IMG/VR virus record: IMGVR_UViG_3300035698_011402
Source: a virus
DNA length: 33,623 nucleotides
Direction: 5' to 3' (one strand)
Within the stretch, counting starts at the first letter, position 1. Every line of letters begins with the position of its first letter. The position numbers and the translations under genes are program-made. Below the pieces are notes generated by a model. That model did no database searches, was not told the origin of the DNA, and was given only the letters and a program-made list of their open reading frames with translations. This document shows positions 25,836 through 26,196 of the stretch, in pieces.

Positions 25836-26196
25836 TGGGGTGCACCGGTTTCGACGTGGTAAGTTGATTCCTATATTTGCATGCAGAGGAATGGTAATGA
25901 CGGCCTCTTTAAAAATCATTCCAGTTCATAAATGCTGACACAGCATTACCTATGGCAGCGTAAGCCGCCATCGTGAAAACGGCAAGATCGTCCTAGTAGC
26001 CGTAAGTAGCGTCGATTACAGGGTGGCAAAGGATGAAGCCTTAAGATTCTTGACTGACAACGCAAAGTGTTGTTGACTATAGGTCAAAGACCTAATGGGG
26101 TTTTTCGTTTGAACCCATAACTCAAACGAATAAGCATGTGACGATGATATAGGGGCATTATTGCGGACACGAGTTCAACTCTCGTCACCTCAACCA
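25836..26196 (+). ncRNA. ssrA: tmRNA (SsrA), one-piece
   Basis: 5' TGGGGTGCACCGGTTTCGACGTGG parallels E. coli GGGGCUGAUUCUGGAUUCGACGGG; 3' T-arm ACGAG-TTCAACT-CTCGT (tmRNA-type loop UUCAACU) followed by CACCTCA-A-CCA; 5'/3' strands pair with a G3:U70 wobble (alanine identity); internal frame ...GCT GAC ACA GCA TTA CCT ATG GCA GCG TAA gives candidate tag ADTALPMAA. Confidence 0.75.

Follow-up and report, generated by a model that had tools for sequence, protein, structure and literature searches.

The 33,623-nt record IMGVR_UViG_3300035698_011402 of the IMG/VR virus collection (hereafter the window, that is, the whole stretch of DNA analysed, in which position 1 is the first letter) carries a gene for a transfer-messenger RNA (tmRNA, ssrA), and this locus is confirmed here as a real and complete tmRNA, whose gene identity, architecture, and tag frame are established. 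Judged from its sequence, it is very probably a functional one-piece tmRNA of a large, probably huge, phage, in which ribosome rescue would keep ribosomes available.

ARAGORN calls a one-piece tmRNA at 25836-26196 (+) with the tag ADTALPMAA*, the tag-coding part being nt 99-128 of the gene, and this matches exactly the coordinates and the tag proposed in a first-pass annotation of the same DNA. The tmRNA covariance model of Rfam (RF00023) covers the same span over model positions 1-374 of 374, with a score of 112.1 bits (gathering score, 47 bits) and E = 3e-43. Both of the tools that the annotation had named for checking its proposal call a tmRNA, their ends agree, and the model score lies far beyond chance. 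With every sequence-level hallmark in place, the gene is, by its features, a divergent tmRNA of the already known one-piece family.

Architecture and tag frame of the tmRNA gene

A tRNA-like domain, a helix 2 that joins it to the mRNA-like domain, and a pseudoknot 1 (PK1) located just before the tag are all present in this gene (Table 1), and the pairing of each helix was verified by script. The acceptor pairs run from U1-A357, G2-C356, and G3-U355 (corresponding to G3:U70) through G7-C351, and the D-loop analogue, GGTTTCGACG, occupies nt 12-21 of the gene. The hallmarks that the first-pass annotation had listed, namely an acceptor stem with G3:U70, the D-loop analogue, the T arm, and a 3′ ACCA, are all found, with 7 of 7 pairs in the acceptor stem and 5 of 5 in the T arm. 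However, the UUCAACU T loop, which had been taken as specific to tmRNA, is not strictly so, being a minority T-loop variant carried by 17 of 218 sampled tmRNAs. Among the four pseudoknots whose inspection had been advised (PK1-PK4), PK1 is well formed, PK4 is strong, and PK2 is plausible, whereas PK3 is weak and faces alternative hairpins.

Other forms of tmRNA were considered and rejected. A two-piece (circularly permuted) tmRNA does not agree with the standard 5′-to-3′ order seen here, and the alpha-, beta-, and cyano-tmRNA models of Rfam are without a match. A mini-tmRNA reduced to the tRNA-like domain, as in mycobacteriophage DS6A, does not agree with the presence of a tag frame together with PK1 and PK4. 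A permuted-tmRNA call by ARAGORN at approximately 25064-25429, made only at the 70% threshold, was treated as a false positive, as it has a nonsensical tag, overlaps a conserved open reading frame (ORF), and lacks a match to the permuted models of Rfam.

The resume codon is the GCU at nt 99 of the gene, and the tag frame closes with the UAA at nt 126-128. In front of this GCU, U(-5) and A(-4) occupy the places of E. coli U85 and A86, the latter being essential for frame choice in E. coli (PMC2481249), and the pentamer UAAAU found at this site also occurs in seven sampled tmRNAs. A better-supported rival frame elsewhere in the molecule (e.g., one ending in YALAA) had been named as a possible objection to the tag; three-frame translation of the tmRNA gene contains no other peptide ending in Ala-Ala-stop and leaves ADTALPMAA as the sole frame of this kind. 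A perfect 7-bp hairpin spans the resume codon, with the critical A(-4) outside it. This hairpin was examined as a possible defect and dismissed, since between -5 and +18 an equal or greater degree of structure is seen in 25 of 208 other tmRNAs.

ARAGORN was applied to 277 fetched loci and returned 220 tag predictions, with the endings LAA (156), FAA (19), VAA (12), MAA (12), YAA (7), and AAA (5). The MAA ending (5.5% of the tags) is found, for example, in a metagenome-assembled genome (MAG) of Treponema bryantii and in Zixibacteria. The earlier remark that such endings are uncommon is right in that they are a minority, but they form an established class, and ALPMAA itself occurs in an Oscillospiraceae MAG (L222), whose tag, ANNEYSALPMAA, has its last six residues identical to those of the phage tag. 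Other similar tags are DNNYALPVAA of a Clostridiales MAG (L176) and ADDYAMPMAA of a Bacteriovoracaceae MAG (L269).

The one rare feature of this tmRNA, passed over in the first-pass annotation, is its first acceptor pair, which is U1:A72 where G1:C72 is usual. In the sample of 218 tmRNAs, the first nucleotide is always G and never U, also in the 94 metagenome tmRNAs among them that match this gene at positions 2-21. As both sides differ from G1:C72 and pairing is kept, we read the change as a sign of selection on the stem rather than of decay; a comparable A1:U72 change has been described in Carsonella (PMC4131195). A pattern for the U1-type 5′ end returned from the viral collection only a permuted tmRNA, in which the T belongs to the spacer, and one chance match in coding sequence.

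Table 1. Position of the tmRNA gene, its parts, and its neighbours in the window
Feature	Position	Strand	Basis
One-piece tmRNA (ssrA) gene, CCA end encoded, 361 nt	25836-26196	+	ARAGORN; Rfam RF00023
Acceptor stem, 5′ strand UGGGGUG, pairing with 26186-26192 (CACCUCA); includes U1:A72 and G3:U70	25836-25842	+	7/7 pairs
D-loop analogue GGUUUCGACG	25847-25856	+	Read in the sequence; high posterior probability in the model alignment
Helix 2, 5′ strand in three segments (gene nt 20-27, 35-41, 44-49), pairing with 26134-26165	25855-25884	+	8/8, 7/7, and 6/6 pairs; same in the Rfam alignment
PK1: AGAGG/CCUCU (5 bp) interleaved with AAUGGU/AUCAUU (6 bp)	25885-25920	+	Pairs scripted
U(-5) A(-4) before the resume codon, equivalents of E. 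coli U85 and A86	25929-25930	+	Sequence UAAAU-GCU
Tag frame GCU GAC ACA GCA UUA CCU AUG GCA GCG UAA (ADTALPMAA*)	25934-25963	+	ARAGORN; sole frame ending in Ala-Ala-stop
Helix 5 hairpin, UAA stop in a GUAA tetraloop	25952-25971	+	7/8 pairs; agrees with the model hairpin
Candidate PK2: ACGGC/GCCGU (5 bp) and GAUCGUC/GUCGAUU (6/7)	25979-26017	+	Plausible; low Rfam posterior probability
PK3 region, weak (3 + 6 bp), with competing simple hairpins	26025-26093	+	Poor model alignment
PK4: GGGUU/AACCC (5 bp) interleaved with UUCGUUUG/CAAACGAA (8 bp)	26098-26130	+	Strong
T arm ACGAG-UUCAACU-CUCGU	26169-26185	+	5/5 pairs; high posterior probability in the model alignment
Discriminator A73 and encoded CCA	26193-26196	+	Read in the sequence
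ORF-free structured RNA directly 5′ of the tmRNA, 222 nt	25614-25835	+	Folding
Degenerate tRNA-like element (Ile-UAU-like, ACCA encoded), 6 nt past the tmRNA	26203-26273	+	Cloverleaf-like minimum-free-energy fold, z = -3.2
Pth2	16612-17070	+	
Tpt1/KptA	21813-22253	+	
YqeY/GatB-like proteins (two)	1330-1809; 23470-23970	+	
Polynucleotide-kinase-like (PNK-like) ATPase	7826-8656	+	

Proposed function and alternative explanations

Expression, charging, use of SmpB, tagging, and the benefit to the phage are the parts of this reading that we infer, with the individual steps drawn from established trans-translation. The RNA would be cut from a longer plus-strand transcript, with RNase P setting the 5′ end at U25836 and the 3′ CCA being encoded. 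Host alanyl-tRNA synthetase would charge it with alanine via G3:U70 and A73, and the tmRNA would bind EF-Tu and SmpB (the protein of the host, or a phage copy outside the window). This complex would enter ribosomes that have stalled, their A site empty, where a broken or stop-less mRNA runs out at its 3′ end, and the nascent chain would move onto the alanine. The ribosome would then resume at GCU 25934, append A-ADTALPMAA in full, terminate at UAA, and be recycled, and the non-polar Ala-Ala terminus would mark the product for host proteases such as ClpXP. For the phage, the benefit would be that ribosomes are kept free when infection or host RNase-type defences truncate mRNAs, which fits the neighbouring tRNAs, Pth2, Tpt1, and kinase.

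Several observations weigh against such a role. Neither the collections searched (viral, metagenome, genome, and phage) nor the surroundings of homologues of neighbouring genes contained a homologue of the tmRNA with more than similarity in the tRNA-like domain; with no close relative, the tag frame and PK1-PK4 are without covariation support. The stretch from PK2 to PK3 aligns poorly to RF00023, with low posterior probability. No SmpB was detected in the ORFs scanned in the 33.6-kb window; as the window shows only part of the phage genome and the protein would be provided by the host, this absence does not argue against membership among tmRNAs. Furthermore, no sigma-70-like promoter lies directly upstream of the tmRNA, the best match being about 850 nt off at 24957-24984, and no terminator was found downstream.

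The search for relatives behind the first of these points covered viral, metagenome, and genome collections, which were pattern-scanned on the tRNA-like domain and yielded 260 loci that either bear a tmRNA or match the pattern. They resemble the phage tmRNA only at the ends that form the tRNA-like domain, the best over 132 nt at 64% identity. A pattern for the exact tag region and a codon-degenerate pattern for the tag had no match in IMG/VR, BLAST against 50,697 phage records gave no nucleotide match to the tmRNA, exact-sequence look-ups of window proteins matched no record, and contigs with homologues of three neighbouring proteins have no tmRNA nearby. The downstream 184-aa protein led to the sole true relative found, a 1.2-kb contig (L282) from Joint Genome Institute (JGI) sample 3300059817, with 73-79% nucleotide identity to 26406-27237. 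This contig does not reach the tmRNA, as coding sequence unlike the window makes up its first 196 nt. Collinearity begins at 26406, downstream of the cluster of RNA elements around the tmRNA and about 20 nt past the 34-nt repeats described below, and since it begins only there, the RNA cluster may be a variable insertion.

Among the viral loci, a separate observation concerns a 296-kb contig, IMGVR_UViG_3300022719_000329 (L290), which carries at about 1-250 on the minus strand a circularly permuted two-piece tmRNA gene. Its parts follow the order T arm, acceptor 3′ strand, CCA, and then the 5′ half, GGGGTGG...GGTTTCGACG, and this truncated locus is uncalled by ARAGORN.

The alternative that fares best is interference with the host, which we nevertheless consider improbable: the phage tmRNA would compete for SmpB, or add a tag that is handled differently, and thereby blunt or reprogram host protein quality control. 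Precedents come from the tRNA-like-domain-only molecule of DS6A, which is thought to titrate SmpB (PMC4131195), and from phage Melnitz, for which selective tagging of host proteins has been suggested (PMC9004378). In the present gene, the tag is unlike the common ...YALAA and has no obvious SspB-type N-terminal motif, and U1:A72 is unique among the 218 sampled tmRNAs. However, cellular tmRNAs use both MAA and ALPMAA ends, so the tag is not exotic, and there is no sequence sign of lost charging determinants. The gene is also complete, with an ordinary resume context, a tag of nine codons, and an Ala-Ala end like that of degradation-competent tags.

It is very unlikely that the gene is a non-functional relic, either a host-captured tmRNA in decay or one retained only within a cassette of the tRNA-array type. 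The covariance score stands 65 bits above the family threshold, the pairs of the tRNA-like domain, helix 2, PK1, helix 5 (7 of 8), and PK4 are intact, the change at 1:72 is compensatory, and the tag frame, with its U(-5) and A(-4), is unbroken. These points have to be set against the weak and poorly aligned PK2 and PK3, the degenerate tRNA-like element immediately downstream, and the possible variability of the RNA cluster that the partial collinearity of L282 suggests, which speak for a relic.

A third alternative is that the gene does not belong to a phage, but its phage context is solid. All substantial ORFs of the window lie on the plus strand, and both flanks of the tmRNA are phage-type genes on that same strand. 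Matches to PHROG families include homing or HNH endonucleases (2120-2764, 15833-16612, 27688-28371, and 31490-32119; five HNH or homing endonucleases were counted in the window), a DNA methyltransferase, a polynucleotide kinase, an RNA 2′-phosphotransferase, and several families without assigned function. An 839-aa vault-shoulder/SPFH protein (28754-31273, +) shares 43-45% identity with proteins of LR756500 and LR756501, two published huge phages. For this vault-like protein, over 5,700 homologues were found at E <= 1e-50, with at most 52% identity, and these occur on huge-phage contigs and in bacterial chromosomes beside lepA and hemN; no tmRNA was found near any copy of its gene. Its domains, noted in passing, are a major-vault-protein shoulder and a Vault_3 repeat (SPFH-like family).

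The G+C content of the tmRNA is 45%, compared with a mean of 55% in sampled bacterial tmRNAs and nearer to the 32-44% of the window, and no near-identical bacterial or viral counterpart of the tmRNA was found, which argues against recent capture or contamination. An ssrA fragment at a prophage attachment site was rejected as well, since the gene has its full length and the ORFs scanned in the window include no integrase domain. Taken together, these features make chimerism of the contig, recent capture, and an attachment-site origin unlikely. We give practically no credence to chimerism or mis-binning that would have brought in a bacterial ssrA, or to a temperate-phage attachment-site fragment: although many tmRNA-pattern matches in IMG/VR lie near contig ends, as expected for prophage ends at ssrA, and the vault-like family is shared with bacterial chromosomes, the gene is not a 3′ fragment, its flanks and G+C are those described above, no bacterial housekeeping gene was found in the ORFs scanned in the 33.6 kb, and a close bacterial match is lacking.

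Neighbouring RNA elements and translation-related genes

The tmRNA stands between two other RNA elements. The 222 nt directly upstream have a minimum free energy of -81.1 kcal/mol (z = -6.78, with 0 of 200 shuffles as stable) and fold into a long closing helix with four or five internal hairpins. The minus strand of this segment folds much more weakly (-60.6 kcal/mol, z = -4.2), which points to a plus-strand RNA. The 222-nt RNA has no Rfam match at E <= 1, and no homologue of it follows the gene for an 84-aa protein in related contigs; it may be a leader or an independent non-coding RNA (ncRNA), and its membership in a tmRNA unit is putative. The 84-aa ORF itself, upstream of this segment (25359-25613, +), is conserved, with 131 homologues at 45-64% identity on contigs of up to 678 kb and no Pfam domain. 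In two of the loci (L285 and L286) its gene sits within a tRNA array, and it may be a tRNA-array-associated phage protein; no tmRNA was found within reach of its homologues.

On the other side of the tmRNA, the tRNA-like element was called as tRNA-Ile (UAU) by ARAGORN at a relaxed threshold only and was missed both at the default setting and by the Rfam tRNA model. Its T arm (CUAGG-UUCGAAU-CCUAG) is good and UAU is a possible anticodon, but the anticodon arm and the variable region are shortened. Between this element and the next ORF lie three tandem 34-nt repeats (26286-26387, +), two of them identical (AAGTAATGTAAGTTGACGAAGTAACTAAGTGGGC) and the third 65% similar, with a TTGACG-like hexamer in each.

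Given the distant position of the best promoter-like site, a single transcript may extend from the small ORF across the structured RNA and the tmRNA to the tRNA-like element. The nearest analogy is phage Melnitz, in which a tmRNA is joined to another structured RNA, a glutamine riboswitch (PMC9004378); the Melnitz tmRNA is of the two-piece permuted type and is combined with a glnA-type riboswitch, whereas the tmRNA described here is one-piece and adjoins a 222-nt structure without an Rfam family. We regard it as unlikely, if worth stating, that the tmRNA is the middle of a three-part ncRNA unit in which the degenerate tRNA-like element forms the 3′ part and the upstream RNA represents a new class that senses a signal or directs processing and so controls tmRNA output. 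If true, this would provide a one-piece, Rfam-unknown counterpart of the riboswitch-tmRNA joining in Melnitz.

With regard to protein-coding genes, the first-pass annotation had placed the tmRNA within a translation-rescue gene set. Pth2, Tpt1/KptA, two YqeY-like proteins, the PNK-like kinase, and the tRNAs bear this out in part, but a scan of all plus-strand ORFs of 80 aa or more except 7443-7706 and 19988-20236 found no SmpB, ArfB, or release factor, and the set looks more like one for tRNA repair and translation maintenance than for rescue proper.

The tRNA content of the window consists of five standard tRNAs, two tRNA-like genes with inserts, and one tRNA with the anticodon CUA. The two tRNA-like genes lie in a tRNA cluster (2974-3092 and 3187-3297, +). 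One, with a score of 47.2 bits, has 45 nt inserted near its anticodon arm; the other, at 28.9 bits against a threshold of 29, has a long extra arm and a 15-nt insert. Such genes are of note because the window also encodes two enzymes of the kind used in tRNA splicing and repair, Tpt1/KptA and the PNK-like kinase.

The CUA tRNA (amber suppressor; labelled Pyl by ARAGORN) is well formed and lies at 31330-31403 (+). A suppressor tRNA would cause read-through and non-stop ribosomes and is in principle linked to the demand for tmRNA. Recoding of TAG within the window was considered and is not supported: TAG ends 12 of 59 ORFs, and reading it as sense merges only one annotated ORF pair. The standard code gives compact genes in the window, and any TAG recoding would be elsewhere in the genome, for instance in late genes. 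In addition, an ORF for an ATP-grasp protein of the R2K family (10873-11688) shares its frame with the ORF that follows it (11695-12354), and only a TAG at 11686 plus six bases lies between them; read-through of 10873-12354 by the CUA tRNA would give a 507-aa fusion, although the arrangement may be coincidence.

Strongly structured non-coding RNA also flanks the HNH gene at 27688-28371. The 382-nt spacer between it and the vault-like gene (28372-28753) folds at -122 kcal/mol (z = -5.8), and in a coarse scan a 200-nt segment at the start of the gene (~27600-27800) has a z of about -6.8. An intron-like or homing-element context around this gene is possible; no Rfam group I or group II match was found there.

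Relation to known tmRNAs and significance

The tag of the one-piece tmRNA of E. coli is ANDENYALAA. The phage tmRNA shares with bacterial SsrA a tRNA-like domain with G3:U70, A73-CCA, the D-loop analogue, and the T arm, an extended helix 2, a PK1 that precedes the tag, and a GCN resume codon with U(-5) and A(-4) in front of it. Its tag is likewise short with an Ala-Ala end, the stop codon lies in the helix 5 loop, candidate pseudoknots follow, and the length is about 360 nt. It differs from bacterial SsrA in being phage-encoded, in U1:A72, in a PMAA rather than an ALAA ending, in its divergent PK2 and PK3, and in its G+C content (45% vs. ~55%).

Phage tmRNAs, which the first-pass annotation had described as rare, are indeed uncommon but well documented, with complete tmRNAs in 402 of 18,146 phage genomes (~2.3%) and 133 unique structures among them (PMC9004378). 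Reports exist for huge phages, which also have SmpB (PMC7162821), for Bacillus phage G, whose tag is AKLNITNNELQVA (PMC12484599; also PMC4131195), and for eight mycobacteriophages of cluster C (PMC4131195). Like those of huge phages (Al-Shayeb 2020), phage G, and the Bxz1 group, the present gene is a complete ssrA in a non-coding stretch among small ORFs of a large genome rich in tRNAs and translation genes. Unlike them, it has a different tag (compare that of phage G) and no SmpB in the ORFs scanned, whereas some huge phages encode SmpB.

Over the tRNA-like domain, the closest sequences in the sample are those of three rumen Clostridiales MAGs (L264, L247, and L158), with 81-84% identity over 64 nt, and the first two also have the UUCAACU T loop. 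The tag ends ALPMAA (L222) and ALPVAA (L176, Clostridiales) resemble the ALPMAA of the phage as well. In contrast, the Clostridia tmRNAs start with G1:C72, and no alignment is possible over the central 270 nt. Among phages, Tpt1 finds its best match in a Clostridioides phage. These likenesses provide a weak hint towards a host among gut or rumen Clostridia, as drawn from a comparison sample that was chosen by sequence pattern.

The current understanding of trans-translation is unchanged by this gene. Its U1:A72 pair is a natural variant that could be used for testing the weight of the first pair in alanylation and RNase P processing of tmRNA. In the biology of large phages, it would represent one more well-formed ribosome-rescue RNA, located beside genes for tRNA repair and peptidyl-tRNA hydrolase, and it supports the view that such phages protect the translation apparatus during infection.

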